From positions 749,942 to 813,941 of the forward strand of contig JBMOKY010000001.1 in NCBI GenBank assembly GCA_049325535.1: DNA of 64,000 bases, read 5' to 3'. A program made the translations under genes and the position numbers. Source of the stretch: Patescibacteria group bacterium (GTDB taxonomy: Bacteria; Patescibacteriota; Patescibacteriia; UBA10025; JAHIVO01). Positions 8,210 to 61,700 of the stretch are shown here, piece after piece (positions within the stretch are counted from its first letter, which is position 1; the number at the start of each line of letters is the position of its first letter). The notes beneath the pieces are model-generated. The model made no database searches and was not told the origin of the DNA. It was given only the letters and a program-made list of their open reading frames with translations.

Positions 8210-8227
8210 ATGAGTAAGAAGAACGGG

Positions 8228-8434: not shown

Positions 8435-8560
8435 TCCTCCGATGAAGATGTGATGTGCGCAACTGTCAATGACGTGAGATGATAGCACGACTGGCATAGA
8501 CTGTCAATATCGCTGATAGCCACGGACGATGTCGCTCGGAAAATCCAGTGCGACTGGCGG

Positions 8561-9211
8561 TCAGTCGGACTGACGCAGACGAAAAATTACATCTGCATAG
8601 TCGGTGGCGCCGAAAATGACGCTCCCGGCTACGAGCATATCAGCTCCTGCAGTAATTATCTGACTGGCGTTATCCGGCTTCACCCCGCCATCGACGGAGA
8701 TGAGTGTGGCCAGCCCGCGCTGGTTGATACCCTGGCGGAGTTTCCGGATTTTCTCGACACAGCCGGGGATGAGCGCCTGACCGCCAAAACCAGGATTGAC
8801 GGTCATGACCAGCACCAGATCGATCAGCGGCAGTACCTCATCCAGAACCCCGATCGGTGTGGCTGGATTGATAGCCACGCCTGCCTGCGTACCAGCCTCC
8901 CTGATGCGCTGGATGGTCCGATGCAGATGCGGACATCGTTCCTGATGGACTGTCACATAGTCTGAACCAGCCTTGAGGTACTCATCGAGCAGATAATCCG
9001 GATTATCCACCATCAGATGGACGTCCAATGGCAGCCGGGTAAACTCTCGAACCGAACGGATCACCGGCGGGCCAAATGTCAGATTCGGCACAAAATGCCC
9101 ATCCATCACATCCAGATGCAGTAGATCGGCTCCGGCCCGTTCAATTGCCGAGATTTCTTCGGCGAGCCGGACGAAATTCGCCGACAGTAACGACGGAGCA
9201 ATGCGTACCAT
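8561..9211 (-). CDS. rpe: Ribulose-phosphate 3-epimerase
   Basis: Full-length match to the Rpe family (…HLDVMDGHFVPN…, …MTVNPGFGGQ…, …VDGG…). Confidence 0.92.
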   Translation of the reverse strand: MVRIAPSLLSANFVRLAEEISAIERAGADLLHLDVMDGHFVPNLTFGPPVIRSVREFTRLPLDVHLMVDNPDYLLDEYLKAGSDYVTVHQERCPHLHRTIQRIREAGTQAGVAINPATPIGVLDEVLPLIDLVLVMTVNPGFGGQALIPGCVEKIRKLRQGINQRGLATLISVDGGVKPDNASQIITAGADMLVAGSVIFGATDYADVIFRLRQSD

Positions 9212-10785: not shown

Positions 10786-10881
10786 TTACTGCTTCGTGGC
10801 ACTTTTGGGCGGATTGCCCGGCTTCGTGACGACGACCTTAGTCACCTTCTTGCCGTCCAAGACGGCTTTACACTTGCTCAT
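10786..10881 (-). CDS. 31-aa Lys-rich peptide MSKCKAVLDGKKVTKVVVTKPGNPPKSATKQ; candidate RiPP precursor/substrate, translationally coupled to the upstream radical-SAM gene
   Basis: ATG overlaps the TGA of the 10878..12353 gene (ATGA). A perfect AAGGAGGTGA SD lies 4-13 nt upstream. Terminator lies immediately downstream. The peptide is below the ORF-track size cutoff. Confidence 0.5.
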   Translation of the reverse strand: MSKCKAVLDGKKVTKVVVTKPGNPPKSATKQ

Positions 10882-12353: not shown

Positions 12354-13695
12354 AGGCCACCTCCGATTCATCGAGCGCGCCTGCCAGAATAAACTGGGTC
12401 AGCGCGCAGCGAATCTCGAGTTCCGCGATGTCGGGAAACCGGGAAATAACCGATTGCTCGGTCGTAAGCCCCTCGTCGATGATGGCGCGCAGCACTTCCA
12501 GCGCGCCGTCGTTGAGGGTGACCGTCTGATACCGGGTCACCAGGAACTTTTCCGGATGACGGTCCAGTACCTTGGTATACCGATTGACGGTAAACTGCCG
12601 ATACGCATCGGGCACCTCAATCGACGGTTCCGGCCGTATCACGTTCGATACGTCGATGGGCGGTTTGGTCAGGCCGCGTACCGCATAATCGATGCAAAAT
12701 CGATCACTGCAGTTCGCGTCGACCTTACAACCACAGACGCATTCGCTCAGAAGCGGACATGAACGGCACGGTTCATCGACCCAGGACAGATCCCGAAAAA
12801 CACCCAGCGACCGTTTCCGCCAGATCACCTCGATCGGCTCGTCCAGCACATTGCCGAAGACCAGTTGGGACTGGTTGCACAGCCGGAAATCGCCCATCGG
12901 ATTGACCGCGCAAAACGTACTCCCGACGCCGCAATTGGACGTCATGCCCTCGCGCAGCAGCCGTTCATCGATGCAGTACGGTATAGCCGTGCCAAATCCG
13001 ACGCGGCCCCCGAGTGACGGAAAATCGTCACGAGCACGCAGCATCTGCGTCACTGCATCGCGAAACTGCTCCACGGTCGGTTTGAGCCGGGGGTCACTCG
13101 CGGAATGCTGGGCGCCGATACCGCCGTCCTCATACCGGTCGACGAATACCGACTCCATGCCGTGTTCCACGGCAACGCAGATGATATCGTAGATCTGGTG
13201 GGCATTGTACCCCGTCAAAACCGGGATGCACCGGACATCATGGCCGGCACCGACATAGTAATCGATCGAGCGAAGCGCCTGATCGAAACTACGCGGACGC
13301 TGGGTGATGAAATCATGGGCAGCCGCGGTCGCCCCGTGAATCGGAACGCCGAAACAGGCCAGACGGCAAGAAATGCCGCGCAGGGTGATGCGCCCATTGG
13401 TGACGATAGTCACCGACGAGTGGTCGCTCAAAAGCTCGATGTACTCATTGAGCTTGGCAACGCCCAGGAGACTCGGCTCACCGCCGATGAGATACACGTG
13501 CGGAATGTGGCTTGTGGACACTGACCGCACGATGCGATCGACCAGTTCCAGATTTGGCGGCTGGTCACGCAACGGATTGTAGCAGAAAATACAATCCGAA
13601 TTGCATTGGTACGTCAGCTCGATGTGGCACAGGTGCGGCACCGAATCATGCGGTACACACGCCAGTCCACATCCGGCGCAATTTTCTCTGTCCAT
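12340..13695 (-). CDS. Radical SAM/SPASM-domain protein with N-terminal extra Cys cluster and C-terminal PqqD-like (RiPP-recognition-element-like) segment
   Basis: CNSDCIFC radical-SAM motif and a full SPASM motif (CGVGSTFC…GNVLDEPIEVIW…CRSCPLLSECVCGC). A C-terminal segment of about 90 aa (LNDGALEVLRAIIDEGLTTEQ…) resembles PqqD/RRE. AGGAG SD before the ATG. Confidence 0.8.
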   Translation of the reverse strand: MDRENCAGCGLACVPHDSVPHLCHIELTYQCNSDCIFCYNPLRDQPPNLELVDRIVRSVSTSHIPHVYLIGGEPSLLGVAKLNEYIELLSDHSSVTIVTNGRITLRGISCRLACFGVPIHGATAAAHDFITQRPRSFDQALRSIDYYVGAGHDVRCIPVLTGYNAHQIYDIICVAVEHGMESVFVDRYEDGGIGAQHSASDPRLKPTVEQFRDAVTQMLRARDDFPSLGGRVGFGTAIPYCIDERLLREGMTSNCGVGSTFCAVNPMGDFRLCNQSQLVFGNVLDEPIEVIWRKRSLGVFRDLSWVDEPCRSCPLLSECVCGCKVDANCSDRFCIDYAVRGLTKPPIDVSNVIRPEPSIEVPDAYRQFTVNRYTKVLDRHPEKFLVTRYQTVTLNDGALEVLRAIIDEGLTTEQSVISRFPDIAELEIRCALTQFILAGALDESEVAYAGR

Positions 13696-18519: not shown

Positions 18520-19317
18520 TCAAACTGGTCGGAGGGTGCCCGCCCAGACCTGCCATGCCAACAATGACTTGGCGACCAAGCTCAAGATGATATACGCGCG
18601 CTCTCCATACAGGTAATCCTGCCACTTTCCTGTTTTTTTGTACTGCAGCACCATGTTCAGTGCAAACACATTGAAAAAGAGGAAAATGGAAAAATATATC
18701 CAGTAAACAAACGTCGGTGCCTTCATGTCCCCTGATCCGGCAAAAAACAGATAGAACGCCACAGCCACCCAGGGCACGGCACCGGCGATGCACCCAAACA
18801 AATACGAGGTCCAATCTGTTTTTTGAGTCGCCTGATTGTGGAGCTCCATCATCCAGCCAAACAGGATCATCATGGCATTCAGAAAAAATATCAAAAGTAA
18901 ACTGATACCATCATACATGCCGACGAGCATGGCGATGACGATAATCATCAGTGACGAGCTAAACGAATACTCAATCCACCGCGCTTTATTGATTCCCTTG
19001 AGCAGATGACGGTTATACCAGCTATTGATTGCAGGCACCATCGATATTGCAGCATGAGCGATTGCCGAGAGAAATAAAAATCCTGCAACGAGCGGCCCGA
19101 TCGGGATTTCAAATATCGTCTTCAGTACTGGTTCGAGCTTCATTGACACAGAATTAAACTCGACAAAGGCGGTCGTCACGGGCAATGTGAATGACGAGCT
19201 GAAAACCAGCATGACCACACCCTGTATTGCATGCAGCAGAGCCATGATGACATTGAAACGGCGCAATCGGCGCAATTTGTCATCGGGCGTTACGGAAACG
19301 GGCGCATTGTTCTCCAT
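18520..19317 (-). CDS. Heliorhodopsin
   Basis: 7-TM protein of 265 aa with strong collinear similarity to heliorhodopsin 48C12 as recalled. TM3 has RWIEYSFSSSLM (counterion Glu). TM4-5 have MILFGWMME…FGCIAGAVPW. TM6-7 have VYWIYFSIFLFFN…QYKKTGKWQDYLYGERAYIILSLVAKSLLAWQ (retinal Schiff-base Lys in SLVAKS). The conserved His residues are present in TM1 and TM2. Confidence 0.85.
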   Translation of the reverse strand: MENNAPVSVTPDDKLRRLRRFNVIMALLHAIQGVVMLVFSSSFTLPVTTAFVEFNSVSMKLEPVLKTIFEIPIGPLVAGFLFLSAIAHAAISMVPAINSWYNRHLLKGINKARWIEYSFSSSLMIIVIAMLVGMYDGISLLLIFFLNAMMILFGWMMELHNQATQKTDWTSYLFGCIAGAVPWVAVAFYLFFAGSGDMKAPTFVYWIYFSIFLFFNVFALNMVLQYKKTGKWQDYLYGERAYIILSLVAKSLLAWQVWAGTLRPV

Positions 19318-47066: not shown

Positions 47067-49802
47067 TTATATAGCTTCGGCTCGACGCACAGAAATCTGT
47101 CCGCCCGGCTCAAGTATGGCTACATCACGGCGGCCGATTTTACCCTGCAGTAAATAGGTGGCCAGCGCATTATCCACCGTATCCTGGATGGCCCGCCTGA
47201 GCGGCCGGGCGCCAAACACCGGATCAAAACCGGTCCGGGCCAACTCCTCTTTGGCTGCTTGACTAGCCTCGATCCTGATGCCTTTTGGTTCCAGGCGTTT
47301 GGCCACCTGCCGGAGCATCAGGTCCACGATCTGGACGATCTCCGGGAAACCGAGCGGTTTAAACACCACAATATTATCAAACCGGTTCAGAAATTCCGGA
47401 CGGAAATAGGGCTTTAATTCTTTATTGATCAGCTCGTCTTTGATGGCGTCCACTCCCGCTCCCTCGCGAATCCGATCCTGGATGACTTGCGATCCGGCAT
47501 TTGAGGTAGCGATGATAATCGTATTGGTAAAATCGATCGTCCGTCCCAGCGTATCGGTCAACCGTCCATCATCCATCACCTGCAAAAATATATTGAGTAT
47601 ATCCGGATGCGCCTTCTCGATTTCATCGAGCAGCACCAGTGAAAAAGGCTGGCTGCGCACGGCTTCGGTCAGATATCCCCCCTGGGTGCTGCTGCTCATG
47701 CCCGGCGGCGCGCCGATCAGCCGATTGATCGACATCTGTTCCTGATATTCGGACATGTCCAGACGGATCATATTTTGCTCTGCCCCAAAATAAATATCCG
47801 CGACCGTCTTGGCTAGTTCGGTTTTACCCACGCCGGTCGGACCGAGGAACAGCAGATTGACGATGGGACGGTTCATGTCCCGCAATTCAGCCCGCGCCCG
47901 CCGGAGCGCGGTGGCCACGGCCGATACCGCCTCCTCCTGATCCACCATCCGTTCGTGAATCAGCGACTCCATGTTCAGCAACCGTTCCGTCTCCTTCTGG
48001 GAAATCTTGGTTACCGGCACGTTGGTTTTATTGGACACGATTTCAGCCACGTCCTCAGCGGACACAATGGCGTTTTTTCCTTTTTTCTTGCGCACGTACA
48101 CGGCGATTTCCTCAAGCAATGAAATCGCCTTTTCCGGCAAATACCGATCGTGTATGTAGCGCTCTGATAATTGTACCGTCCGGCTGATCGATTGGTAGGA
48201 AAAGAAAATTTCATTTTTCGCCTCGATGCTGGAAGCCTTCCCCTGCAATATCTGGATAGCGCCGTTTGTATCCGGTTCATTGATCGTCACTTTCTGAAAC
48301 ACGGAGGTCAGTGAACTGGACGACTCAATATGCTGACGATAATCCAACGGCGTCGTGGTGGCAATGGCATAAAACAAACGCTTGGACAGTGCGTTGGCCA
48401 GCATGTCAGATATATCCAAATTCTCCGCGCCCTGAGTAGATACGCCTACCATATTCTGGATATTATCGATGAACAAGACAATGTTTCCCGATCGAACAAT
48501 CTCGTTGATGATTTCCAGCAACAGCGCTTCCAATTCTCCCTGCCGCCCGGCGGCGCCCACCAGCGACGCTACGGACAAACTGACAAACCGACGGTCCTGG
48601 AGCACTCCCGGCACTTCTTCGGTGGCCATCAATTCTGCGATACCCTCGACCACGCTTGATTTGCCCACGCCGGGATTGCCGGACAGGATGACATTTTTAC
48701 CGCCCTCAATGATACGCAGCACCTCCTCGATTTCACGGTCACGGCCGATGGTCGGCGGCAGCATGCCACGGCGGGCGAGCTGCGTCAGGTCATTTGAAAA
48801 ACGATCCAGGAGCGGTGTGGCCTGCGCGGTCATGGATTTATTCATCACGCCTTTCGATTTATAGGCAGCTTTGGTTCGCTGTTTATGCCAGCGCTCCGAC
48901 AGCCGATGCTGGATATTGATCCACTCCACGACATTGATGATATCCTGTTGTTCTATCTCCAAATCGAAAAATATTTCCTTGGTCAGGTCGTCCACCTGAA
49001 TGAGCGCCGTGATGAGCTGGGCAACATCTACCCTCTCCCGACGGCCATAGTACGCCTCAGCATAAGCGCGCAGGAGTACAGCCATAAATCCCTGGGACAC
49101 GCCTACTCGCCCGTCGCTTGCCGGTACACGCTGCAGCATCCGGGTAATCCGCTCAACGAGTGCCTGGCCATTCACACCGAGTCGCCCGAGCACCACCTGC
49201 ATATCCACATGACGCAGCAACGACGCGAGTATATGGAGCGGGGCCACATAGGCATGGCCAAATCGCCGTGCCAATTGCCAGGCATCCTCCACCTGCCGCG
49301 CGGCCACCGGTGTGTAGGAACCGGATACGTCTACCCAGGTATTTCGCCCGGCCGCTTCCGCATGCTGGAGCAACGAGCCTGGTTCTTCCTCAGTCAATAG
49401 TGGGTCAAACGGCCGATCAGCCACAGATCGTTCTAAGAGTGACTCCCTGGTCATGCGGTAATACGCATATAGATCGGATAGGATGCTCAGAGCAAAGATG
49501 CCCATGAGCCCATTGCGCACCAGGAACGCATCCCATACCGCGCCACCCTCGTCCAGCGTGACATATACAGTGACCCCCAGCGCCGCCAAGCCCATGATGC
49601 CAAAAAAAACAAGAAAACCATTGATCAGGGCCCGTACCGTTCGTTCGATCGTTTCTTCGAATATGTGCAGTGTGTCTAATTTCTTCTTCCAGTGCAGGAC
49701 TGACCCCTCGAGCCAAGCGTATATCGGATATTCATCAACAAAAACCTGGGCACCAGGTTTACCCTCAAGGATGACAAAACTTTTTCCGCGTGGTTCGGGC
49801 AT
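47067..49802 (-). CDS. Membrane-anchored ClpC/ClpB-like AAA+ chaperone (two TM helices N-terminal to Clp_N repeats and two AAA modules)
   Basis: First Walker A GNPGVGKSS, second Walker A GPTGVGKTE, Clp signature …LLDEIEKAHPD…, C-terminal D2-small domain. The N-terminal 120 aa contain two hydrophobic helices. Confidence 0.8.
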   Translation of the reverse strand: MPEPRGKSFVILEGKPGAQVFVDEYPIYAWLEGSVLHWKKKLDTLHIFEETIERTVRALINGFLVFFGIMGLAALGVTVYVTLDEGGAVWDAFLVRNGLMGIFALSILSDLYAYYRMTRESLLERSVADRPFDPLLTEEEPGSLLQHAEAAGRNTWVDVSGSYTPVAARQVEDAWQLARRFGHAYVAPLHILASLLRHVDMQVVLGRLGVNGQALVERITRMLQRVPASDGRVGVSQGFMAVLLRAYAEAYYGRRERVDVAQLITALIQVDDLTKEIFFDLEIEQQDIINVVEWINIQHRLSERWHKQRTKAAYKSKGVMNKSMTAQATPLLDRFSNDLTQLARRGMLPPTIGRDREIEEVLRIIEGGKNVILSGNPGVGKSSVVEGIAELMATEEVPGVLQDRRFVSLSVASLVGAAGRQGELEALLLEIINEIVRSGNIVLFIDNIQNMVGVSTQGAENLDISDMLANALSKRLFYAIATTTPLDYRQHIESSSSLTSVFQKVTINEPDTNGAIQILQGKASSIEAKNEIFFSYQSISRTVQLSERYIHDRYLPEKAISLLEEIAVYVRKKKGKNAIVSAEDVAEIVSNKTNVPVTKISQKETERLLNMESLIHERMVDQEEAVSAVATALRRARAELRDMNRPIVNLLFLGPTGVGKTELAKTVADIYFGAEQNMIRLDMSEYQEQMSINRLIGAPPGMSSSTQGGYLTEAVRSQPFSLVLLDEIEKAHPDILNIFLQVMDDGRLTDTLGRTIDFTNTIIIATSNAGSQVIQDRIREGAGVDAIKDELINKELKPYFRPEFLNRFDNIVVFKPLGFPEIVQIVDLMLRQVAKRLEPKGIRIEASQAAKEELARTGFDPVFGARPLRRAIQDTVDNALATYLLQGKIGRRDVAILEPGGQISVRRAEAI

Positions 49803-49805
49803 GGA

Positions 49806-50198
49806 TCAGGTCAGCCACATAAATGGCATATCGGTTATTTGGTAGACGATATAATAGATAACCACCAGTGGGAATACTATCCATAGAACGACCGCACAAA
49901 AAAGTACCACCAGCCAGAGTCCGGCTGCCAGCAATTTCCAGAATAAAATGATAATGCGAAAAACGATGCTTATGATCCGCCCTTCACGGGTCATATCACC
50001 GTACATCGGCTTAAACATGTTTTTCAGCCAGATGCCGAGTGCCACCCGCCGTTGCAGGTGAAATGTCGCGCTTTCTGATGCAAACCTGATCACGCGAAGC
50101 AACCCCTTCGAATACCACCAGATGGGGAAATAGAGGATATCCCAGAGGACGTCAACTAAAATGTATTTGATTGTAGCCAGTATGATATTTTGAGACAT
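49806..50198 (-). CDS. Small polytopic membrane protein upstream of the Clp-like gene
   Basis: ORF 4 nt from the clp-like start, co-oriented. Hydrophobic. Confidence 0.45.
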   Translation of the reverse strand: MSQNIILATIKYILVDVLWDILYFPIWWYSKGLLRVIRFASESATFHLQRRVALGIWLKNMFKPMYGDMTREGRIISIVFRIIILFWKLLAAGLWLVVLFCAVVLWIVFPLVVIYYIVYQITDMPFMWLT

Positions 50199-50295: not shown

Positions 50296-50676
50296 TCACA
50301 TGCCAAGTGTTTCTCGAATACGTCCGATGATATCCGTGAGTTTGACTTTTTCTTTTTCCATCATCTCGCACTGGCCGGCATCAACTGCTTGCCGTACCCG
50401 AGGATCCTCGGCATAGTTGGTCAGGAGTATTACCGGAACCAGCGCCCCCCAGCTATCCTTGCGCAACCGGTCTAATACCTCAATCCCATGCATCTTTGGC
50501 ATCATAATATCGAGCAAAATCAAATCCGGTCGCTGCGCCAATGCCGCACCGAGGCCCTCTTCACCATTTTGCGCCTCATATACGGAAAAATTCTGCTTTT
50601 CCAGCTCCTGGCGCAGTACCTGACGAATAGGCAATTCATCTTCTATGATCAAAATTCGTTTTGATGGAGTCCCCAT
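50296..50676 (-). CDS. Single-domain response regulator (REC only), paralog A
   Basis: Acidic pair EDE, phospho-Asp in LILLDIMMP, and conserved T (VILLTN). Confidence 0.8.
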   Translation of the reverse strand: MGTPSKRILIIEDELPIRQVLRQELEKQNFSVYEAQNGEEGLGAALAQRPDLILLDIMMPKMHGIEVLDRLRKDSWGALVPVILLTNYAEDPRVRQAVDAGQCEMMEKEKVKLTDIIGRIRETLGM

Positions 50677-50699
50677 ACAGACGTAGTGTAGCGCGACCG

Positions 50700-51899
50700 C
50701 TATTTATCCGCAAGCGTGCGACCCCGGGGATTATTTTTTTCCATTTTCCGTGCCGCTGCCTGTTGCTCGTTTTTCAATACTACTTCTTTAAATTTGCGAA
50801 ATGAATAAGCCATCTCATCAAATGCCCGCGAAAGTTCCCCGATCTCGTCAGCATCCTTCGTTCCGACCATATATTCCAGATTTCCCTTGCGGATGATGTC
50901 CACCCCTTCTTTCAATTTCACGATTGGTCGGCTGATCCGGCGACCCAGCCAGAGCGATAAAAGATACACGATGACGATAACTATCAGCGAAACCACGGAA
51001 ATAAATCCCAACATAGCCCGGATGGGTTGGGTGGCCTCCTGGTCCTCAATCTCAGTCATCAGGCACCACTGAAGCCGCGGCACGTAATTATGGGTGCTGA
51101 GCACTCGGACATTCCGATAATTGTATATCCTGAATATTGGCTCAGCGTGATCCTCAATGATCCCTCCCTCGCCGGCGTATTCGCGCATATCTTTGAAACA
51201 ATCACGAGTACCCTCGGAATTGACAGTCTGCTTCAGCGCCGAGTCAGGATTGAATCGCGAGGGACTGACCATGACATTGCCCGCACCAACCAGATACGCC
51301 TCACCGGTTTCTCCCAATAAATTCGTATCGCTGACGATGTCATACAGCCGATCCGGGAGAAAAACAGCAACCATCACGCCGCTCGTTTGGCCTTCATGAC
51401 TGATTGGCACCGCAATGTGAAATGTATTTCGTCCGGACGTCTCCTCATAGAGGATATCGCCAATATGAGGCCGGACTGAACCAACGATAAATTCCTTCTC
51501 CAGTGCATAGTTCTGCTCAATCCGATCTGATACCGTCGCACCAACCACAAATCCCTCGGTATCCAGGATGTATACTTCGGATAATTCCTGGAATTGCTGC
51601 AACATATGGTTCCGTAGTAACTCAGATATGGCAGCAGAATCGCACGTCAGCCCCGCGTCGACTGGAGTCATACACTGCTGGATGGCGCTCCCACCGGCAA
51701 AATCAGCCACGCGGTCGACCGAAACATCGAGGTATGTATTGACCTCGTGGGCACGGCTATAGGCAATCGTTTTCAGATTGTCAAAAACCTGGGTTTTAAA
51801 ATTGAGGGCAGAAAACCAGTAAAAGGATATGGCAGCCAGCGCAGTCAGTAACACACCGGGAATAAGGTAAATAAGCGTAACGCGTGTCTTTATGGTCAT
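50700..51899 (-). CDS. Membrane sensor: TM - periplasmic Cache-like domain - TM - HAMP, with no kinase or other output domain
   Basis: Two TM helices bracket a roughly 270-aa extracytoplasmic domain. A HAMP-like amphipathic segment follows (ISRPIVKLKEGVDIIRKGNLEYMVGTKDADEIGELSRAFDEMAYSF), then only about 30 residues. Confidence 0.55.
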   Translation of the reverse strand: MTIKTRVTLIYLIPGVLLTALAAISFYWFSALNFKTQVFDNLKTIAYSRAHEVNTYLDVSVDRVADFAGGSAIQQCMTPVDAGLTCDSAAISELLRNHMLQQFQELSEVYILDTEGFVVGATVSDRIEQNYALEKEFIVGSVRPHIGDILYEETSGRNTFHIAVPISHEGQTSGVMVAVFLPDRLYDIVSDTNLLGETGEAYLVGAGNVMVSPSRFNPDSALKQTVNSEGTRDCFKDMREYAGEGGIIEDHAEPIFRIYNYRNVRVLSTHNYVPRLQWCLMTEIEDQEATQPIRAMLGFISVVSLIVIVIVYLLSLWLGRRISRPIVKLKEGVDIIRKGNLEYMVGTKDADEIGELSRAFDEMAYSFRKFKEVVLKNEQQAAARKMEKNNPRGRTLADK

Positions 51900-52276
51900 G
51901 CGATTTTTTCCCGTACAGCCTTAATAATATCTTCTAATTTAGTTTCCGCTTTACTGAGCAGCTGGGCCCGACCAGTCCGCACCGCGTCCTGAACCCGCGG
52001 GTCATCGGCCACATTGGTCAATAAAATGACGGGTACGTGCTTTCCCCAGGTATCCTCTTTCAGACGCTGCAGCATTTCCATGCCGTGCATTTTTGGCATC
52101 AATACATCGAGCAAAATTAATTGCGGTCGTTCCTGAAACGCAATCATTGTGGCCGTTTCACCATTATCCGCTTCCAGTACCCGCAAACCGGTTTTTTCCA
52201 GTTCACGTCGAATAATCCGACGGATTGGTTCTTCATCCTCTACCAGCAAGACAGTTTGCGGAGCAGCCATAGGCAT
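51896..52276 (-). CDS. Single-domain response regulator (REC only), paralog B
   Basis: REC motifs as in paralog A, to which it is very similar. 4-nt overlap with the sensor gene start. Confidence 0.8.
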   Translation of the reverse strand: MPMAAPQTVLLVEDEEPIRRIIRRELEKTGLRVLEADNGETATMIAFQERPQLILLDVLMPKMHGMEMLQRLKEDTWGKHVPVILLTNVADDPRVQDAVRTGRAQLLSKAETKLEDIIKAVREKIA

Positions 52277-52286
52277 GGGTAATTTT

Positions 52287-52487
52287 CTAAAAATTCTCAG
52301 GGCGTAATTTATCTACCGAAGCAAGCATCGTCGTGCTGGCTTTCGCGATTTCCTGTATATACTCCCGCTGTTCGTCCGTCAGCGAATCGGCCGATTCATG
52401 CAACAGCGCCTCAGTATACAGTCTGATCGTAGTCAGCGGCGTCTTGAGCTCGTGACGGATTTCAGTAAATGAATCGGCGGTTGGCAT
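52287..52487 (-). CDS. Stand-alone HisKA (dimerisation/phospho-acceptor) domain protein, 66 aa, without HATPase_c
   Basis: H-box EIRHELKTPLTTIRLY followed by a second helix (…EYIQEIAKASTTMLASV). No ATPase domain lies anywhere in the neighbourhood. Confidence 0.5.
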   Translation of the reverse strand: MPTADSFTEIRHELKTPLTTIRLYTEALLHESADSLTDEQREYIQEIAKASTTMLASVDKLRPENF

Positions 52488-52495
52488 AGATGTAA

Positions 52496-52987
52496 TTATT
52501 CTTCAATCGGGGTAAAACTATCCACGGTGCCGCAAAATGTAAAGAGGGTGCGGCAGCATCCCTCCGCAGAAGTGCGGCAGACACTGGAAAATGTCACTTC
52601 AACCTGATCTCCGACATACGGGCGAAATTGTTCGCGCATGGAATCATACTTGCCAAATCCGATTTCAAAACCTTCATTGCTCAGTATGCCGTATGATTCG
52701 CTCGGGGTCTTGTACCCTTTGATAAAAACGACACCCGTCGAGGTAATCGGCTCATTGGTGTTGAAATTTCCGGCTGGCTCAGCGGAATTAGTATTTGCTG
52801 CGGCATTTACATTTTGATTGTCAAGCCCTACCGTAGCATTCACCGTGGCATTGATGTTCGTCGTGGATACCGATTGATTGCTGTTTAGCTCATTGACTTT
52901 GCTGAAAAAAGAAAACCCAAAATACCCGATCACTCCGAGGACGACGACCGTGATCCCGATTAAAATAAACTTTTTTGACATATTCAT
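52496..52987 (-). CDS. Membrane-anchored secreted hypothetical protein with Asn/Thr-rich low-complexity linker
   Basis: N-terminal TM/signal anchor. The C-terminal domain has 4 Cys. Confidence 0.45.
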   Translation of the reverse strand: MNMSKKFILIGITVVVLGVIGYFGFSFFSKVNELNSNQSVSTTNINATVNATVGLDNQNVNAAANTNSAEPAGNFNTNEPITSTGVVFIKGYKTPSESYGILSNEGFEIGFGKYDSMREQFRPYVGDQVEVTFSSVCRTSAEGCCRTLFTFCGTVDSFTPIEE

Positions 52988-52998
52988 AGAGATATAAA

Positions 52999-53685
52999 TT
53001 ATGGCTGCGGGATGGTATTAATAATGTCCGCGGCCGAATTGAAAAAATGTAGTTGCGTCACAAATTCCTTCGGCAATGTGCCGAGATTCATCATGGTATT
53101 CAGCAGTCCGATCCAATAATTACTGACGAAAAGTAGCTGCGGCGGCTGTTCGGTATGGTACTCGCGATTTTTCAAATGTACGATGGCGCGCATCAGTACC
53201 TGGAATGTGCCCAGTCCCCCACGGAACACGACGATAATCGGCGCGCAAGTCGCCAATATTTCATTGCGGGGTTGTGGGGAATTCACCACCGCCACCGGCG
53301 ATGTTCCGTCAATCTCTTTTTTCAGCTCGGTGAAAACTACTCCGATTGATTTTCCCTGTGCCGCGCTCGTGGTCGCCCCCATGATCCCGCCGGGACGACC
53401 GCCATTAATGATGATCCCGCCGGATTTTACTATCGTACCGACCAATGCCCGCGCTTCCTGGCACTGAGTGTGGGACTGCTCCAGGCTGCCGCCGCCGCTG
53501 ATCGCCACCACGAGACCCTCGCTCTCATAGGTGATCAGTTCGTCCTTGTGTGACTCGTGTATGGCGGCAAACCCATGGCTATGGCGCGCCGTCGCCGTGG
53601 AGATTGCCTCCCCGAGTAGCCGGCGTTTTTTCCGGGCGTACAACTCCTCTGGTTTGACAATTTGATTATTCATATCGAAGAGCAT
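52999..53685 (-). CDS. LOG-family (TIGR00730 / SLOG Rossmann) protein
   Basis: Motifs GGGxxGxMGA (NGGRPGGIMGA) and …FRGGLGTFQVL… are typical of the LOG / lysine-decarboxylase-like family. An N-terminal extension of about 50 aa is present. Confidence 0.55.
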   Translation of the reverse strand: MLFDMNNQIVKPEELYARKKRRLLGEAISTATARHSHGFAAIHESHKDELITYESEGLVVAISGGGSLEQSHTQCQEARALVGTIVKSGGIIINGGRPGGIMGATTSAAQGKSIGVVFTELKKEIDGTSPVAVVNSPQPRNEILATCAPIIVVFRGGLGTFQVLMRAIVHLKNREYHTEQPPQLLFVSNYWIGLLNTMMNLGTLPKEFVTQLHFFNSAADIINTIPQP

Positions 53686-54916
53686 CTAAAGCATTAATTT
53701 TCGCGGCACGGCGAGCTGGGTACACCCCGGTGATGACGCTGATGATAAATATAATCGCCGCGATCAGCAGTACAAAAATGAACGGGGTATAAAATATCTC
53801 CACCGGATCGCCTCCCAGGCGATTAGCCAGATACTTCATCAGGTAATTGAGCCCCTGGCCAGCCAGCCACCCAAGGCCGATACCGATCAAACCGCCGGTC
53901 ATACCGATGACGATCGCCTCGACCAGAAATAACCGATAAATGTCGACGGCGGTGGCACCGAGCGTTTTCATCAAGCCGATTTCACGGGTACGTTCGAGCA
54001 GGGAAACGGTCAGGGTGTTTAATGCGCCGATGGCGGCGACGAACATGGCGATAGCGCCAAAACCGGCGACAATCAATTCAAACACCACAAATATTTTATC
54101 GATCTGACCGACGGTGTCCGCCACAGAGTCCACCTGGTAGCCCATTGACTCGATCTGCTGGCGCACCTGGGGCAAGGCCGCTTCATCCTCCACTTTGATC
54201 CGGGCGACATTATACTCGGCATCTTCACCGTCATTGACCTTCACCCGAGCGGCGCTATAGTCCGGTTTGTACCCTAAACTTTTCAGGTATTCCAGCGGGA
54301 CGTAGGCCAGGCTCAATTCTTTGTCTTCATTGATGGCGCCGGCTACCGTGACTAATACATCGGTGGGAACCAGCTCTTCTTCAGTCGAACCCTCAATTTT
54401 CTTCGGCACCAGCAGCCGTAAATTCATCTTTTGATCGATTGACTCCTGGGGTGTCTCAAAACCGATCAGACTCAGCGCCGTTTTGGTCAGTACAATTTCC
54501 GGTTTGTCCTCGCCGCTAAATCCATTTCCATATGAAATCTTAACCCCTTCATAACTGAGAAATTTCGGATCGGTACCATATATCGCCACGTCAGTAACCG
54601 AAGCGCCATTGGTGATTTGACCGGACAAACTCAGTGACGGACTGACATCCTTCACGTTCTCTAGATTTTTAAAATCATCTACCACCTCATCATTGAGCTG
54701 GAGCAGCGTGGACTCACCTTTGGATACGTCCAGTATCGTCAGTGCCTCCACATTCGCGATCTGGCTCCGGACCAGGCGTTGCAGCCCAAATCCTATCGAT
54801 ACCAAAAAAACTATCAGCGAAATACCGACCGCCATGCCACCGATAGTCAGGAAACTGCGCAGCTTGCGGCGGCGGAGATTGGTACTGGATAATAATACGG
54901 TAAATCCTAATTGCAT
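53666..54916 (-). CDS. ABC transporter permease, MacB/FtsX-like (N-terminal TM, periplasmic domain, C-terminal FtsX 3-TM block)
   Basis: Topology and C-terminal FtsX-type signature. Follows the ATPase gene. Confidence 0.8.
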   Translation of the reverse strand: MQLGFTVLLSSTNLRRRKLRSFLTIGGMAVGISLIVFLVSIGFGLQRLVRSQIANVEALTILDVSKGESTLLQLNDEVVDDFKNLENVKDVSPSLSLSGQITNGASVTDVAIYGTDPKFLSYEGVKISYGNGFSGEDKPEIVLTKTALSLIGFETPQESIDQKMNLRLLVPKKIEGSTEEELVPTDVLVTVAGAINEDKELSLAYVPLEYLKSLGYKPDYSAARVKVNDGEDAEYNVARIKVEDEAALPQVRQQIESMGYQVDSVADTVGQIDKIFVVFELIVAGFGAIAMFVAAIGALNTLTVSLLERTREIGLMKTLGATAVDIYRLFLVEAIVIGMTGGLIGIGLGWLAGQGLNYLMKYLANRLGGDPVEIFYTPFIFVLLIAAIIFIISVITGVYPARRAAKINALDALRYE

Positions 54917-54918
54917 AG

Positions 54919-55779
54919 TTAGGCTGACAAAAATTGTTCGCTTCCCTGGATCACCCGTCCATCGCGAATATAGATAGTACGCGAGGCATACCGAACATAA
55001 TCAATATTGTGGGTGACCAGGATAATCGTTTTCTTGAATTTTTCGTTGAGCTCCTTAAATAAATTCATCACCCGATCGGCTGATTTACTGTCCAGATTAC
55101 CGGTCGGCTCATCAGCAATGATGATACCCGGATCATGTACCAGCGCCCGGGCAATAGTCACTTTTTGCTGCTGTCCACCGGACAGTTCCGTGGGAAAATA
55201 ATCCGCATGATCATCCATGCCGATTTCCCGCAAACGCTGCATGGCTATTTCGTGTCGTTTTTTCTTGTCCTCATTATTGATAGCCATCGGGAGTTCGACA
55301 TTTTGTACCACGGTCAGTGACCGCACCCATTCCGGCCGCTGAAACACGATACCGATTTTACTGTATCGGATTTTGGAAATTTTATCCGGTTTTTTAGTGG
55401 TCAAATCAATGCCACCAAGGATGACATGTCCGGAAGTCGGGGGCTCCAGCCCCAGCAGTGTATTGAGAACGGTTGATTTGCCGCTTCCTGACGGGCCCAG
55501 AATAACGATAAACTCCTCAGGATAAATACTAATGTTAATATCCTTCAAAACATGGATGACATTTTTACCCACCACGAATTTTTTCTGCACGTCTTTCACC
55601 TCAAGTAGCGGTTTTGATTTCTTGCCAGCTGGGGCTGCCGCCGCGGTCTGCTGTGCTAATTGCGCAATGGTCAAACCGCCACCTGTCTCGGCAGCTGGCA
55701 TACTCGTCCTCGCCAAAACCGCCGTCGGTTCGGTTATTTTCTTTTTTTGATTTTCGCTCGTGCTCGCCATACTACTCAT
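54919..55779 (-). CDS. ABC transporter ATP-binding protein, MacB/LolD-like
   Basis: Walker [10 protein letters not shown], signature LSGGQQQKV, Walker [12 protein letters not shown]. Start set at the ATG 1 nt downstream of the giant gene stop. The listed longer start is TTG. Confidence 0.85.
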
Positions 55780-55780
55780 T

Positions 55781-58700
55781 TTAAAATAAGCTTCCGACAT
55801 TGCCCAACCAGGAGAAGGTAGCCTCAAGATTAGAAATAATCAACTGAAGGAACGACTCGCGCTCACGGGACGTCAGCACCGTGTGTGAATCCGATTTGGT
55901 CACGTTACCGGCCTTATCAGTCGACACCACCCGAAAATGATATGTTTTTGCCGGAGCGAGATTGGTCACTACCACCAAATGATCGAGTACGAGCTCGGCA
56001 TTCTCTTCTGTTTCATCGGTATAATCAGTACCACCCAACCCAACGCCATACTCTACCTTTGAAGTCGTGGCTTCATTTGTTTTCCAGGAAATGACGATTT
56101 GGATCTTTGAGGCATCCCCGGAACCGATCGTGTTTGACTCAGATGCGACGCCAAATATTTCCGGGGGGGTAGTGTCTTCCAGTGTAGTAAATTCCAATTC
56201 AGCGGATTCTGCCTGATACCCAAATTCGTCATTCCCCCTGACGATATATTTATACAGCGTGGCATCCTCCAGCCCGAAGAGTAGCACGGAATGATCGGTC
56301 TGTAGCGCGGCTGTTCCCTGCACCTTTGGAGCGATATTTTCATTGTAGTACTCCACTTCCGAGGTAGTGGGTACGTTTGTCTTCCATCGGATTTCAGTCT
56401 GCCCTTCGGCTTTATTTTCCGTAACCACATCGCTCACCTGAGGAAATGTCAGCGTCTGAAATGTGTAGTTGTCCGAGCTAATCGTATTGCCCGATTTATC
56501 CACGCCATTGATACGAAGATTGTACGTGGTACTGTCTGAAAGGTTTTCCAGCTTGACCGTATGAGTAAATGCAAATGAGCCGGACGTATCAGTATAAGTC
56601 AAGCCGTAATTGGTCGTGGTGCCGTACTCGATAACAGCCGTCGTCTCCTTGTTCGTTTCCCAGGAAATGATGGCATCAAACAGCCGGATATCCGACACCT
56701 CCAGATTGAGCACTCGCGGAGCCTCGAGAGTCGTAAATGACTGCACTGACGACAGGGCGACATTTTCATCCACGTCGATACTCTTCACTTGATAGTAATA
56801 TTTAGTCTGGGGTTTGAGGCCGGTGACTTTCACCGAGTGCGACTCGACCTGATCAGCGAGTCCCTGTTCAGTATCGAGCCCGCCCTCAGTCAGGCCGATC
56901 TCCACGAACGACGAAGCGATACGCTCAGTACGCCAGGTAATGGTCGCAGAATATGAATCGGCAACAGCAGTCGGCCCCTCGGTAATTTCCGGCGGCTGGG
57001 TGAAGCGGCCCTCTGGTTTCTCCGACACCACGTCGGTGGGGTCTGATGTAGCCGCGGCTTTGTCTTTGGCCGTAATCAGGTAAAAATACTCCTGCGTATT
57101 ATCGAGGCCGGTGTCGAGATACCCCGTCGAGGTGATGGTGGCGATATCTTCAAAGGTCTCATTATCCGTGGACCGGCTGATGGTATAGAATAATTCGTCA
57201 TCAGTGGTATACCCCTCCGGCGGATCCCAAGTGATGGTGATCGAGTAGCGCTTGGCGTCGCGATCCGACGAATCGGTGATGGTCACAGCCTGTGGCGGAC
57301 CCGGCGGGGTGGTGTGGGCTACAAATTCGACGGCGGCATAGTTATCATAGCTGAGGTTGCCGCCATCATCCACCGCCAAAACATAAAACGTATTCGTACC
57401 CTGCTGCGTAGCGGCATCAATCGGACCGACGCTCGTCGCTTCCGTGTACGTCACATTAGATTCATTCGGCAAATTATTGATGGAGTAATAATACCCCGCC
57501 ACCGTGACACCCTCATCCTGCGGCGCCTCCCATTCAAAAGTATAGCTATTAGTCGTATTGCTCAGTGGATCCACGGTCAGATTCAGCGGTGCCGATGGCG
57601 CGCCTTTGGTCAGGAACGTGAAATCGGTCGAATACCCAGTATTGCCGTCCTGATCCGTCCAACGCGTACGATAATGGTACTCGGTATCGGGCTGTAGATT
57701 AGTCAGAGTAACTTCGTGTTCATTGACCAGGTCGGGCGTGCCGGCTTCATTACCGTACGCCGTCGTCGTTCCATATTCCACGTAGGAAGACGCGTCGTGC
57801 TCGACGATATTACCGTACTGATCCTGATCATCCAGCGTCAACCATTCCACGATCGCCGAACGGATGAAGGGCGTGACAGTTGGCTGACCACTCATGAGTG
57901 GAGCAAATTTAAATTTACCCTCGGGTTTGATTTCCAAAACTGCTGAGTTACCCGACTGCACACCACCGGTACCGGCCGCGCGCGCAAAGTAGCTATAAGT
58001 GATATCAGTATCAAGGCTGGTATCCAAATATCCCAGGGTGTTGACCGTAGCAATCTTTGAATAATTCGCCGGCGGATCATCCACCGAATCAGGATTTTCA
58101 CAATCCGCTTCACAACGATATACATTGTACCCGGTCACTCCCGACCCGACATCAGCTGGTTCATCCCAGGTCAGCACCACGGAGTATTTTTGTGTGGCGC
58201 GATCGGACGTATCGGTCGCCGCGGCACTGGAAGGAACACCAGGCGCATTTGAAGAAAAATAGTAATTTTCCGATACGTAATTATCATAGTCAATATTATT
58301 GATCGCGTCAGCGGCGACGATGTAAATGGTGTTTTCTCCCTGCTGCGTGGCCGCAGAAAACGACAACAATGACCGTGAACTGGTTTGCGTACTGGTCGTC
58401 CAGCCGCCATCAGGCGACGGCGTGGCGCTGCCGGCCAAATTAATTCCGCATGTTTCCGCCGAAGGCAGCTCATTGATGGTATAGCAATAACGAAGTATAT
58501 CAGCTGAATCGCAATCCCCAGCTCCAGAACCGAGACACGTACTCGGCAAATCCCACGTCACGGTAAACGAATTGACGTCCTCCTGGGGACTGAGCGCGCT
58601 CGTCACCGGATCGATAACGATATTCTGCGGCGCTGAAGGTGCGTCGCCGGCATAGTAAAAAATTCTTTCCCGGCAGGTGACGGAAACATTATCAGCATTG

Positions 58701-61700
58701 TCCACCGAGTATACGCAAAATGAATTTTCTCGGGTCTGCGTGGCGAGCTCATCATTGACCGCGTTGGTCGGCACGCAGGTCTGCGCCCCTTCATTGATTG
58801 CATAACAATACTCCTTGATCCCCGAACCGCCGGTATCGGTCGCTACTGGCCATGAAAAATCAAAATTATTGACCGATGTCCAGCTGGCGGGCGTGGCCGT
58901 CACTGACGAAGGTCGCGACGGCGCAATGGTATCCAATTTATAGGTAAAAAGCGTGCCGCTCGAAACAGACGTATTATTATTTCGATCCTTCGTCCGGATG
59001 ATCAGATAGTATTCGTCAGACGTCAAAGCTGAAGCCGCCTGAGTGGTGACGTCCCATGATCCAGCCGATCCGTCAGGTGAGGCATAAAAATTCGTTCCGC
59101 CGACATAGGCGAGATTGGTTGGATCATCGGCATCGTCAATCGGATCTTTGGTATCGTCACTGCCAAAATATACGTAAAACCCGTCTATGCCGATACCGCC
59201 GGCATTATCAGCGGCAGACCAGTCGAAATACGGCGTTGTTTCATTTGTCCATGTATCATCGGCGATGCCGGTACCCATCCCACTATCAGTATAGCCAAGG
59301 ACCACCGCTGGATTGCTCGGCGCCGACAGGTCACTATAGTACGTCCAGCTGATATCATCGATCGACGGGGTGTACACTTGGTCGGAGGCAAAGCTGAGAC
59401 GCACCTGGCCGTACTGGGATACATCCGATTCCACTGAATAATATGTCGTGCCGCCGATCGTACGGACGTTCCCCGCCTCTTCCCATTCCCCGGGCGTGGT
59501 GCAACTAGCGTCATCACAGGTCCGCGTCTCTACCGCCAGCGAGGTATTGTCAGCTAATGTGCTGGTCACCGCCAGGGTGCCATACCCAAAAACACCTGCG
59601 GTGAAATCATTCACTTGCGATATCCATGATCCGTTTGCCTGGAAACCGGTCGATGCCGTCGAAACCACATACCGCTCCATGGCCGACGTGGACTCACCGC
59701 GAAAACCCAATATGATATTATTATCGGTCATCACCAAGGAACCGTATTCATAATACTGAAGCACGGTTCTCGTCGTCCACGAATCCCCCGACAAATCATA
59801 AACATACATTTCATCGGTATTATTACCCCGAGGCACCAGAATATTGCCCTGGCCATCCAGTACGCAGGCATCACCATAATACAAAGCAGCCGGCGCCAAC
59901 GCCATTGTTTCCCAAGTCAAACCCGGATTATCCGCCGGATCGGTATTAAACCGATATATATTCCTCGTATTATTACTTTGTACATAATACACATAATTAT
60001 CTCCACCGACAGAAGCGTACACCGCGCAAGAACCAAGATACGCTGCTGCGGTCAAGTTCGTACTCGTACCGATTTGTGTCCAGACATCATCAGTGATGTC
60101 ATATGAATAAAAGTACCGCGTGTTAGCACCCGTAATGAGGTATATCGTATCATTGCCGTCATACACCAAATCAGCGCCATAACCCGGTTCTGTAATATTT
60201 GCCGGCGCGCTTGTACGATGATTCAGTCGTGTCCATAAATCTGTTTTCGGATCATAGCGGTAAAAATACGCGATGTTATCCCCCAGGCCATCATCGCCAC
60301 TCAGCAAATATACTCCATCGAGCGCGTCAGTGGCATGATCAATATACTCCGCGTCAGCTCCGAATCGGACATAGTGCGGCACGCTGGCGCGCTTTTCCCA
60401 TCGCTCCAATTCCGGATAGTACGCATAGAAATCGGGGGTATTCAAACCGCGCGCCACAAACATCGCATCCTTCGTATCCTCAGCGTCATCATAAAAAGCC
60501 GTAGCGCCATAATAAAACCCTGCCCGGTTCAGGCCGGTTGGCAGTGCTTGCGTCCGCCAGCGGTTATCCGACACGTCATACGCCAATAAAGTGTATTCAG
60601 CCTCGCCACGCAGCACGTACAGCGTATCGGTTTCTTCGACATAGAACATGGAATTGGAGCTACCCAGGTATTTACTGGTCGGGATGTCAGCCAGGTATTC
60701 CCACTTATTTTGGGCGATGTCATAGCGCAGAAAATCGTTTGACACGTGACCCCGCAGCAGATAAATGTATCCGTCGATGTAATATGACGTCGCGCCATAC
60801 GATGTCCAGAGCGGAACGTTGTTGCCGTATGACCAGCTGCCACCTACTTCATATTTATAGAAATCGTTATCATTGTACCCCCGCGTCGCATACACACAGC
60901 CGCCGGCCGTTCCACAATAATCGCCATTGGGCACATAGGTCAGTGTGTGTCCATAGTACGCTGTTTGATCCATGTCAGGCACCGCCGGATCGCTCCAGAT
61001 ACCGGTGGAAATGGTATACTTCATGAAATAATATTGGGCGTTCCCGCTGGAAGCATAGATAGTGTCATTGCCGTCATACACTAGGCTGCCACCGTAACTC
61101 ACGATCTGCGAAACAGGATTCATCGTATCCCACGTTTTGGCGCTAATATTGTACCGCTTAAACGTCGTGCCATTGCCGGCCGTCGCAAATAAACATCCTG
61201 AGGCGTCTGTACAACCGAGGGTAACACCGTTGGGCACATACACCATAGCAGCACCACGGGTGACATTCACCGTCCCGTATGCCGTGTGTGTCTCGTCATA
61301 TGTTTTATTGGAAATAGAATACGCCCACAGGTTTTGCGAGTTATTGCCGCGTAATATAAATAATGTATCGTTGCCGTCGTAGGCGATGGTCGACCCGTCA
61401 TTGGCCGTAGTGGCAGATAGCTGCAGCGGTGTCGGAGCCTCATGCGTCCACACGCCATCGGCCACCGAGTCTAATTTCATGGTATCACCCGAATCGGCAT
61501 TGGTATTGATATTCGTTTCCGTGATTCCAACCGCCCCAAAATCCGCGCTGTCATCCCAGTCGACGGATGCCGACGGTGAAATGCCGCTGTACTCATAAGT
61601 AAATACCGTCTGCGCGGCAGCGACATTTCCCGCTTGATCTTTGGCGGCCACGCGCAAGTGGTAAATGCCCGAAGATATCTGATTGCCGTCCTTGTCTACC

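Follow-up and report, generated by a model that had tools for sequence, protein, structure and literature searches.

The phosphorelays known to us depend for the transfer step either on HPt domains or on DHp proteins, such as Spo0B and ChpT, in which an inactive catalytic domain persists. Here we describe a putative signalling locus in which the catalytic domain appears to have been dispensed with altogether. The locus lies between positions 50296 and 52487 of a 64,000-nucleotide stretch of a Patescibacteria genome (contig JBMOKY010000001.1, positions 749,942 to 813,941), which in its whole length is referred to as the window in the following, and it comprises the genes of a 66-residue protein with a HisKA domain alone (mini-HisKA), of two receiver-only proteins (REC-B and REC-A) and of a Cache-HAMP sensor without an output domain. 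Judging from sequence and predicted structure, the reading that we favour, to which we would give about an even chance of being correct, is that the mini-HisKA is a minimal histidine phosphotransfer protein working between the two receiver paralogues. In a more general form, namely that the DHp-only protein is functional and acts on the adjacent receivers rather than being a remnant, we consider the claim highly probable.

Of the known systems, Spo0B shares with the mini-HisKA a DHp-like hairpin with a phosphorylatable His, the absence of autophosphorylation with ATP and a place between two receivers, in its case Spo0F and Spo0A, and this logic is mirrored in the type of locus described here, where a receiver paralogue can stand on each side of the mini-HisKA gene. 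On the other hand, Spo0B continues C-terminally into an alpha/beta pseudo-catalytic domain and is covered by Pfam families of its own, while neither applies to the mini-HisKA, and the presumed partners of the latter are both receiver-only, with no DNA-binding end point among them. Domain A of EnvZ dimerizes and can be phosphorylated in trans; OmpR takes over the phosphate from it, and OmpR~P is in turn dephosphorylated by it. This DHp fragment of 67 residues (1JOY) is nearly the same as the mini-HisKA in size and fold, but it was cut out of a full kinase in the laboratory, whereas the mini-HisKA is encoded by a natural and conserved gene. ChpT, a dimeric phosphotransferase of the DHp type, resembles the mini-HisKA in serving two receivers, one of which is the Rec-only protein CpdR (PMC9981736), and differs from it in that its CA-like domain is retained, if degenerate, and that its phosphate comes from a hybrid kinase; the cluster contains neither such a domain nor such a kinase. 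Finally, in the RedCDEF system of Myxococcus, the receiver RedD passes phosphate to RedE, a kinase-like protein that does not autophosphorylate and that acts in turn on the single-domain receiver RedF; to this extent RedE is like the role proposed here for the mini-HisKA, taking phosphate from one receiver and acting on another, single-domain one (PMC2755868).

Stand-alone HisKA proteins are classed as phosphotransfer proteins in surveys of the P2CS style (PMC4618731), and the term 'incomplete HKs' (histidine kinases) is in census usage (bioRxiv 10.64898/2026.02.27.708494), but we found no description in the literature of the DHp-only family, of its position between receivers or of the residue pattern reported below. 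A natural, conserved DHp hairpin of 60-odd residues that has receiver-only proteins for partners would reduce such a relay to its minimum. As a compact system of four proteins, it would bear on the question of how much of a histidine kinase specific phosphotransfer needs and on how reduced genomes wire their signalling, and this in the Patescibacteria, whose regulation is almost unstudied. For annotation, it would mean that short HisKA-only open reading frames (ORFs) of this kind are not to be dismissed as kinase fragments. Nothing in these findings, it should be added, overturns the two-component dogma.

Gene arrangement, intactness and search for a catalytic domain

The four genes lie on the minus strand of the window in the order mini-HisKA, REC-B, sensor, REC-A. 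The mini-HisKA gene (52287..52487) encodes 66 amino acids with a Pfam match to HisKA only and the H-box RHELKTPLTT; REC-B (51896..52276) and REC-A (50296..50676) are both annotated with 126 amino acids and contain Response_reg only (Pfam E=6.9e-24 and E=1.1e-24, respectively); and the sensor (50700..51899), with 399 amino acids, is built, according to Pfam and to an AlphaFold2 (AF2) model, as TM1-dCache-TM2-HAMP, where TM stands for a transmembrane helix, followed by a helical stub and a short charged tail. Both the order and the ORFs are as reported in a first-pass annotation that a model had made from the sequence alone, and all four were located at the coordinates first claimed. Ten nucleotides separate the mini-HisKA from REC-B, the stop codon of REC-B overlaps the start codon of the sensor by four nucleotides (ATGA, 51896..51899), and 23 nucleotides separate the sensor from REC-A, so that there is no room between the genes for relics of a catalytic domain. 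The same arrangement of four genes was found on twelve contigs from separate sequencing runs, at 98-100% identity.

A HATPase_c domain was not found in the 64-kb window, whether by Pfam on the four proteins, by tblastn or by custom hidden Markov models (HMMs) applied to ORFs in six frames. The tblastn queries were four full kinases related to the sensor together with the kinase of a related cluster (that of lineage L014, see below), and the matches of all five in the window were limited to the Cache-HAMP part of the sensor and to the 66-residue ORF. The custom HMMs, covering HisKA+HATPase, HisKA_3+HATPase, HATPase alone, REC and the mini-HisKA family, were applied with the --max option to every six-frame ORF of at least 30 amino acids and returned one DHp (the 66-residue ORF), two REC and zero catalytic domains. 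The earlier statement that no HATPase_c domain is present in or near the cluster is thereby borne out within the window, and it is for the window, not for the genome, that the label 'kinase-less' is established. A Pfam sweep of 30 more ORFs of the window gave no further signalling gene, Rfam gave no match in the window, and at the family level NCBIfam left all four proteins unassigned. A promoter and terminator scan performed no better than on shuffled sequence as far as promoters are concerned, and yielded one candidate promoter, located after REC-A.

Are these four ORFs genes at all? The first-pass annotation had offered, as one of its readings, a decaying two-component system, in other words, that the ORFs are functionless leftovers of a kinase broken up during genome reduction. 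Such a history would fit the small genome (the 66-residue protein is encoded on a 1.15-Mb contig), the fact that the nearest non-self homologues of the sensor are complete kinases and the lack of a catalytic domain in 64 kb. However, the four ORFs are intact and tightly packed, with no frameshifts, premature stops or spacer DNA. What is more, when the window is compared with L013, a related lineage with the same gene set, synonymous sites are saturated, with a proportion of synonymous differences (pS) of 0.68-0.81 overall and of 0.68-0.78 in the four genes of the cluster, while the corresponding nonsynonymous proportion (pN) is well below this, namely 0.21 and 0.25 for the receivers REC-B and REC-A, 0.30 for the mini-HisKA and 0.37 for the sensor, the value for the nearby ClpB-like gene being 0.125. 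The mini-ORF, moreover, recurs at 64-88 amino acids in at least 15 sequence clusters and in ten lineages, in one of which, L014, it coexists with an intact kinase. Because the ORFs are intact, pN is well below pS and the genes are conserved in relatives, pseudogene status is rejected: the comparison indicates that all four genes are under purifying selection and that none of them is a pseudogene. Decay, which we regard as scarcely credible for the locus, can therefore be rejected for the mini-HisKA and the receivers.

The stand-alone DHp protein and its family

In Pfam, the mini-HisKA matches HisKA (PF00512) over residues 8-61 of its 66, with E=1.7e-13 and 50.8 bits against a cutoff of 26.9. 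In a scan at E<=1, HisKA was the only match among the signalling families, with none to Spo0B, ChpT or Hpt. The description of the protein as HisKA-only thus stands, and the possibility, allowed for at the outset, that a profile search might fail to support HisKA in so short an ORF did not materialize. The sequence is that of NCBI entry MFZ6036325.1, which carries the title 'MAG: histidine kinase dimerization/phospho-acceptor domain-containing protein' and is encoded on a contig of 1,147,868 bp. His12 (codon CAC, 52452..52454, minus strand), which its sequence and conservation mark as the predicted phospho-accepting histidine, lies in the H-box RHELKTPL; all 18 family members that were aligned have it, and so do the additional loci.

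The AF2 model of the single chain (pLDDT 90.8) is a helical hairpin with helices at residues 4-31 and 38-60, and the C-terminus follows only 5-6 residues past the second helix (alpha2), with no C-terminal alpha/beta domain. With its two helices, the model does not correspond to the four-helix bundle of the Hpt type (PF01627). Among PDB folds, the model comes closest to those of the RetS, GacS and ERS1 DHp domains, with a root-mean-square deviation of approximately 1.3 A over 56-57 residues, and the family profile matches HK853, GacS, DivL and the above-mentioned domain A of EnvZ (1JOY, 67 residues, E=8.6e-7).

The family emerged from an exhaustive search, while a word-indexed homologue search with the 66-residue query returned its own cluster alone. 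Namely, phmmer against 1.84 billion representatives gave 207 matches, and among the best 150 of these, which were inspected, at least 15 representatives of 50%-identity clusters are themselves only 64-88 amino acids long, with 37-57% identity to the query. In an alignment of 18 family sequences, His12, Glu26 and Gln40 are invariant, and the consensus reads H-x-LK-x-PLTTI-x-LY-x-EALL-x-G-x-x-G-x-LT-x-EQ-x-EYL-x-EI, the best conserved stretch being the segment PLTTIxLYxEALL of the first helix (alpha1), below the His. Since at least 15 clusters of proteins of 64-88 amino acids exist, the His is invariant and the predicted fold is that of a DHp domain, we conclude that the mini-HisKA represents a conserved gene family of putative stand-alone DHp proteins and is not a kinase remnant. 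As a side observation, the best phmmer match to the mini-HisKA (E=7e-14) is P0139, a protein of 556 amino acids encoded outside the window, which consists of six tandem DHp-like repeats with Phe at the position of the His (SFNLRTAL, SFKLRTLL) and is thus without the His.

Residues of the H-box

In receiver complexes of histidine kinases, such as HK853-RR468, the surface of alpha1 just below the His is the region where the receiver docks. In the HisKA motif H-E/D-x-x-T/N, the acidic residue at H+1 is needed for kinase activity only, and T/N at H+4 for phosphatase activity only (Willett and Kirby, PMC3510030). If these residues are compared between the mini-proteins and full-length DHp domains, T/N at H+4 is found in 146 of 160 full-length domains and in 5 of 16 mini-proteins (Fisher p=1.4e-7), and Lys at H+1 in none of the 160 full-length domains and in 4 of the 16 mini-proteins (Fisher p=4.7e-5), with the reservation that both tests count related sequences as independent. 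The five mini-proteins with a canonical H+4 residue carry T, the remaining ones S, G, A or Q, and the His is kept in every one of them. What selection keeps in the family, as far as the alignments tell, is the His and the putative receiver-docking surface of alpha1, and neither the residue specific to the kinase activity nor the one specific to the phosphatase activity. This pattern fits a phosphoryl carrier, because a carrier needs only the His and the docking of a receiver.

The same residues bear on the possibility that the mini-HisKA is a dedicated phosphatase or sink, that is, that its dimer docks phosphorylated receivers, hydrolyses their phosphate and so resets receivers after acetyl phosphate or a kinase encoded far away has charged them. 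The mini-HisKA of the window does keep a full H-E-x-x-T box (HELKT), with the T/N at H+4 that is specific to phosphatases (PMC3510030), and RedE acts as a phosphatase on RedF (PMC2755868). Across the family, however, the phosphatase residue is not maintained by selection, being T/N in only 5 of 16 mini-proteins in all of which the His is retained, and the keeping of two distinct receiver paralogues next to the mini-HisKA is more naturally explained by transfer. It speaks for a phosphatase that the isolated DHp domain of EnvZ (domain A) reportedly retains such activity towards OmpR~P. All in all, we consider a dedicated phosphatase somewhat unlikely.

Gene context in ten lineages

The mini-ORF was found in ten distinct lineages, namely the window, L013, L014/L015, L016/L017, L020, L023, L102, L103, L104 and L106. 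Scans of genomes and metagenomes with five sequences returned mostly ordinary full-length kinases, with mini-ORFs only in L022, L023, L030 and L106, and the species of the window itself was absent from their matches. The records of L022 and L023 are labelled 'uncultured Gammaproteobacteria bacterium', while their synteny is of the Patescibacteria type, which is probably due to an error of binning or labelling.

In the window and in L013, whose REC-B is 68% identical, the order is mini-HisKA, receiver, Cache-HAMP sensor, receiver. L014/L015 (62%) have receiver, mini-HisKA, two receivers, a PAS kinase and two further receivers, and L016/L017 (49%) have receiver, mini-HisKA and receiver, followed by PGK and enolase. 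L020 has mini-HisKA and receiver, L023 receiver, mini-HisKA and receiver, L102 mini-HisKA and two receivers, and L106, a contig of 680 kb, receiver, mini-HisKA and two receivers. In L103 (4925-6519), a mini-HisKA of 68 amino acids stands between two OmpR-type regulators of 229 and 227 amino acids, and no kinase is present on the contig of 10.8 kb. L104 has a mini-HisKA without a receiver, upstream of PGK, enolase, two iPGM genes and a gene of the phosphotransacylase type (PTAC). The pair of PGK and enolase directly downstream of the mini-HisKA or receiver gene thus occurs in two lineages (L016 7457-9903 and L017 917-3363; L104 6367-8809).

Altogether, a receiver gene directly adjoins the mini-HisKA in 9 of the 10 lineages, at least two receiver genes are present in 8, and receivers flank it on both sides in 5, including L103. 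A HATPase_c gene, by comparison, was found in the fetched locus of a single lineage, L014. As read from gene order, the conserved unit is a receiver of the REC-A type, a mini-DHp and a receiver of the REC-B type. This unit is embedded in a backbone that tblastn retrieved in eight lineages, consisting of an ABC ATPase, an FtsX/MacB permease, a LOG/SLOG gene and a transmembrane protein of 155-193 amino acids, after which the receivers and the mini-HisKA follow; in four of these eight, the block is continued by a membrane protein of 130 amino acids and a ClpB-like ATPase. The slot between REC-B and the 130-residue protein gene is taken by the Cache-HAMP sensor in the window and in L013 and by the PAS kinase in L014, and there is no such gene in L016, L023, L102 and L106.

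The first-pass annotation had considered that relatives might have an intact kinase in this position, of which the present locus would be the remnant. A kinase does lie at the equivalent position in L014, where it is intact, with 867 amino acids and the architecture TM-PAS-PAS-PAS-HisKA-HATPase. That said, it is not homologous to the sensor, it coexists with a mini-HisKA, the window is without frameshifts, and in tblastn it has no counterpart in the window except the mini-ORF.

The kinase of L014 is also relevant to the possibility that the mini-HisKA is a decoy or modulator, which would form a heterodimer with the DHp domain of a kinase encoded elsewhere, in the manner of RetS and GacS, or would be phosphorylated in trans by the catalytic domain of such a kinase. 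In support of this, the mini-HisKA is 42% identical over 50 amino acids to the DHp domain of the L014 kinase, and its best matches in the PDB, by fold and by sequence, include the DHp co-complex of RetS and GacS (7N0E). On the other hand, 9 of the 10 lineages have no kinase in the locus, while receiver genes are nearly always there, a purely steric decoy needs no invariant His, and conservation is highest on the surface of alpha1 where a receiver would dock. For these reasons, a decoy appears to us quite unlikely.

The receivers

Both receivers match PF00072 and have a complete phosphorylation site of acidic pair, phospho-Asp, Thr and Lys, made up of D14, D57, T87 and K109 in REC-B (of 124 amino acids if the start is Met3) and of D13, D56, T86 and K108 in REC-A. 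Two features typical of allosteric regulators are absent from both, namely the aromatic switch residue of beta5, the residue at K-3 being Leu106 in REC-B and Met in REC-A, and the Lys-Pro cis-peptide, the Lys being followed by Ala in REC-B and by Glu in REC-A. Leu or Met at the switch position, the lack of Pro after the Lys and the sequence T-N-Y/F after beta4 are found in all orthologues of the receiver clades. Traits of beta5 and beta4 of this kind have been discussed for the Rec-only intermediaries MrrA, SdrG, Sma0114 and CpdR (PMC9981736), which REC-A and REC-B resemble in sequence, a resemblance that does not amount to a test.

REC-A and REC-B are 52% identical (BLASTP) and therefore old paralogues rather than recent copies, so that their earlier description as 'very similar' was overstated. 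Orthologues of REC-B show 49-71% identity. In a neighbour-joining (NJ) tree, REC-B falls into one clade with those receivers that, in each relative, immediately follow the mini-HisKA, the receivers upstream of the mini-HisKA form a second clade, and a third unites REC-A with its orthologue in L013.

The Cache-HAMP sensor without an output domain

The sensor matches dCache_1 over residues 35-232 (E=1.9e-13, 51 bits, cutoff 45) and HAMP over residues 317-364 (50808..50951, minus strand; E=7.7e-11, 42.6 bits, cutoff 25), the latter being its best conserved stretch in comparison with L013. The C-terminus that follows (residues 365-399, 50703..50807, minus strand) is without a transmitter domain according to the AF2 model, the alignment with L013 and Pfam, and neither Pfam nor NCBIfam finds an output domain in these final 35 amino acids, be it a kinase, cyclase, MCP, GGDEF or other domain. 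The AF2 model (pLDDT 88) has a helix at residues 3-68, an alpha/beta domain at 106-285 and helices at 291-337 and 352-389, in other words, two transmembrane helices, a Cache fold and a HAMP domain, the AS2 helix of which runs on for approximately 25 residues, forming a free stub that reaches approximately residue 389. The tail has the motif YSFRKFxE, kept in the window and in L013, and then becomes variable and charged. In L013 the sensor has the same end point at 46% identity, and its gene (7372-8565) overlaps that of REC-B (7001-7375) by the same four nucleotides as in the window. The predicted TM-Cache-TM-HAMP protein, said to end about 30 amino acids after HAMP, was thus confirmed, with the end lying 35 amino acids after it.

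The nearest non-self homologues of the sensor are Cache-HAMP-HisKA-HATPase kinases of 630-660 amino acids, at 28-37% identity, which makes the truncation of a full kinase a plausible origin of the sensor. Full kinases of this kind (P0003, P0005, P0007, P0008) can be aligned to it over TM1, dCache, TM2 and HAMP, but in them AS2 leads into a DHp domain, while the sensor of the window has neither DHp nor CA. In a few relatives from Patescibacteria, a coiled coil forms the end of the protein, and the kinase module is likewise missing. Three such Cache-HAMP proteins, P0009 (L012 5001-6320), P0011 and P0013, carry the motif GRE(L/M)KMIELKKE in their coiled-coil end and represent a type of output-less sensor distinct from that of the window.

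Could the sensor and the mini-HisKA be the two halves of one kinase? We rejected this, as the mini-HisKA is far closer to the DHp domain of the L014 PAS kinase (42% identity over 50 amino acids, E=7e-11) than to the DHp domains of the kinases related to the sensor (E=3e-4 to 0.3); what is more, it lies upstream of the sensor, with REC-B between them. The earlier argument that the gene order excludes a simple frameshifted kinase holds.

A non-covalent variant of the same idea is that of a split sensor, in which the free C-terminal helix docks the mini-HisKA dimer or REC-B, so that an extracellular ligand gates phosphotransfer or phosphatase activity with no transmitter covalently attached; this can coexist with phosphotransfer. 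The end point of the sensor and its YSFRKFxE motif are conserved, its AS2 helix extends approximately 25 residues past HAMP, the stop-start overlap with REC-B is kept in L013, and in the kinases nearest to the sensor the AS2 helix leads into DHp, all of which is in keeping with such a role. However, of the 10 lineages that have the unit of mini-HisKA and receivers, only 2 contain the sensor, and the mini-HisKA does not come from the kinase lineage of the sensor. We therefore regard a split sensor as unlikely. The ATGA overlap suggests that REC-B and the sensor are translationally coupled, and this coupling, together with the free helical stub, suggests that the sensor, a lineage-specific accessory, acts through protein contacts. 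That it signals in this way had been among the readings of the first-pass annotation. It is placed outside the core unit because it occurs in only 2 of the 10 mini-HisKA lineages.

Proposed phosphorelay

Of the readings put forward in the first-pass annotation, a relay in the manner of Spo0B is the one that we favour, given the DHp-only family, the invariant His, the neighbouring receivers, the rarity of kinases in the loci and the relaxed residues of the H-box. In such a relay, the mini-HisKA would probably form a homodimeric four-helix bundle with a phosphorylatable His12, and a phosphoryl group would pass reversibly from the Asp of one receiver paralogue to His12 and from there to the other receiver. 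The logic would be that of Spo0F-Spo0B-Spo0A or CckA-ChpT-CpdR, minus the pseudo-catalytic domain. The phosphodonor would come from outside the cluster, perhaps as a kinase of the kind seen in L014 and conceivably as an acyl phosphate, and the Cache-HAMP protein, as an accessory co-translated with REC-B, would presumably modulate the relay through protein contacts.

Several points weigh against this interpretation. Apart from the dependence among the sequences compared in the Fisher tests, the mini-HisKA of the window itself has a fully canonical HELKT box, with which phosphatase activity remains compatible, and the relaxation at H+1 and H+4 in the family could reflect a generally looser constraint. 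Both presumed partners are receiver-only proteins, so the putative relay has no DNA-binding end point, and the search for a kinase, which did not turn up the phosphodonor, covers the 64-kb window of a genome of 1.15 Mb. Furthermore, it is REC-A rather than REC-B that the upstream receivers, like the second receiver of L102, resemble slightly more, but their orthology with REC-A rests on differences of 0.3-8 percentage points (2-8 in 4 of 5 comparisons), and the NJ tree does not group REC-A with the upstream receivers.

A kinase-free form of the His-Asp relay is also conceivable for these ultra-small bacteria, in which acetyl phosphate or another acyl phosphate would serve the receivers for self-charging, the DHp dimer would equilibrate phosphate between the two paralogues, and the stub of the sensor would dock on the DHp and gate it. 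Hints in this direction are the presence of a kinase in only 1 of 10 loci, the relaxed H+1 residue and the downstream position of PGK and enolase in two lineages and of PTAC in one. We find this form unlikely; if true, it would amount to a sensor kinase that has lost its ATPase and whose remaining parts are no longer covalently joined.

Neighbouring genes

Directly upstream of the mini-HisKA gene lies that of a single-pass membrane protein of 163 amino acids (52496..52987, minus strand) with a C-terminal domain of four Cys and no match in Pfam or NCBIfam. Counterparts are found directly upstream of the receivers and mini-HisKA in L013, L014, L016, L020, L023, L102 and L106. The family comprises proteins of 155-193 amino acids with one N-terminal transmembrane helix, a linker rich in Asn and Thr and a four-Cys C-terminal domain of approximately 90 amino acids (SSVCRTSAEGCCRTLFTFCG), and its gene always lies between the LOG/SLOG gene and those of the receivers and mini-HisKA. 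The protein is possibly a partner of the signalling unit. That it forms a single frameshifted gene with the mini-HisKA was considered and rejected, as its C-terminus is predicted to be extracellular and a receiver lies between the two in L014, L016, L023 and L106.

Further upstream, the ABC ATPase, the permease of the FtsX/MacB type (with a MacB periplasmic domain) and the LOG/SLOG protein are encoded at 52999-55827 (minus strand) in overlapping or near-touching ORFs, in the same order in eight lineages. ABC and FtsX genes next to receivers and a mini-HisKA recall transporter-coupled signalling of the BceAB-BceS type. This string of genes is headed by a giant ORF (55781-64000, minus strand) of more than 2,739 amino acids, which runs off the window, is 2,865 amino acids long in relatives and contains Kelch/beta-propeller, FN3 and purple-acid-phosphatase-N-like repeats. 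On the other side of the cluster, the conserved membrane protein of 130 amino acids (49806-50198), without a known family, precedes a ClpB/ClpC-like ATPase of 911 amino acids (47067-49802, minus strand), the N-terminal extension of which, approximately 150 amino acids long, is hydrophobic and by eye resembles transmembrane segments.

At a greater distance, approximately 31 kb from the cluster, the window contains a heliorhodopsin gene (18520-19317, minus strand; Pfam PF18761, E=3.2e-99). A survey of heliorhodopsins connects them with two-component genes in a number of phyla, the Patescibacteria among them (PMC8612252). Finally, two adjoining radical SAM/SPASM proteins of 497 and 451 amino acids are encoded in overlapping ORFs at 10878-13695 (minus strand), which suggests a putative peptide-maturation locus.

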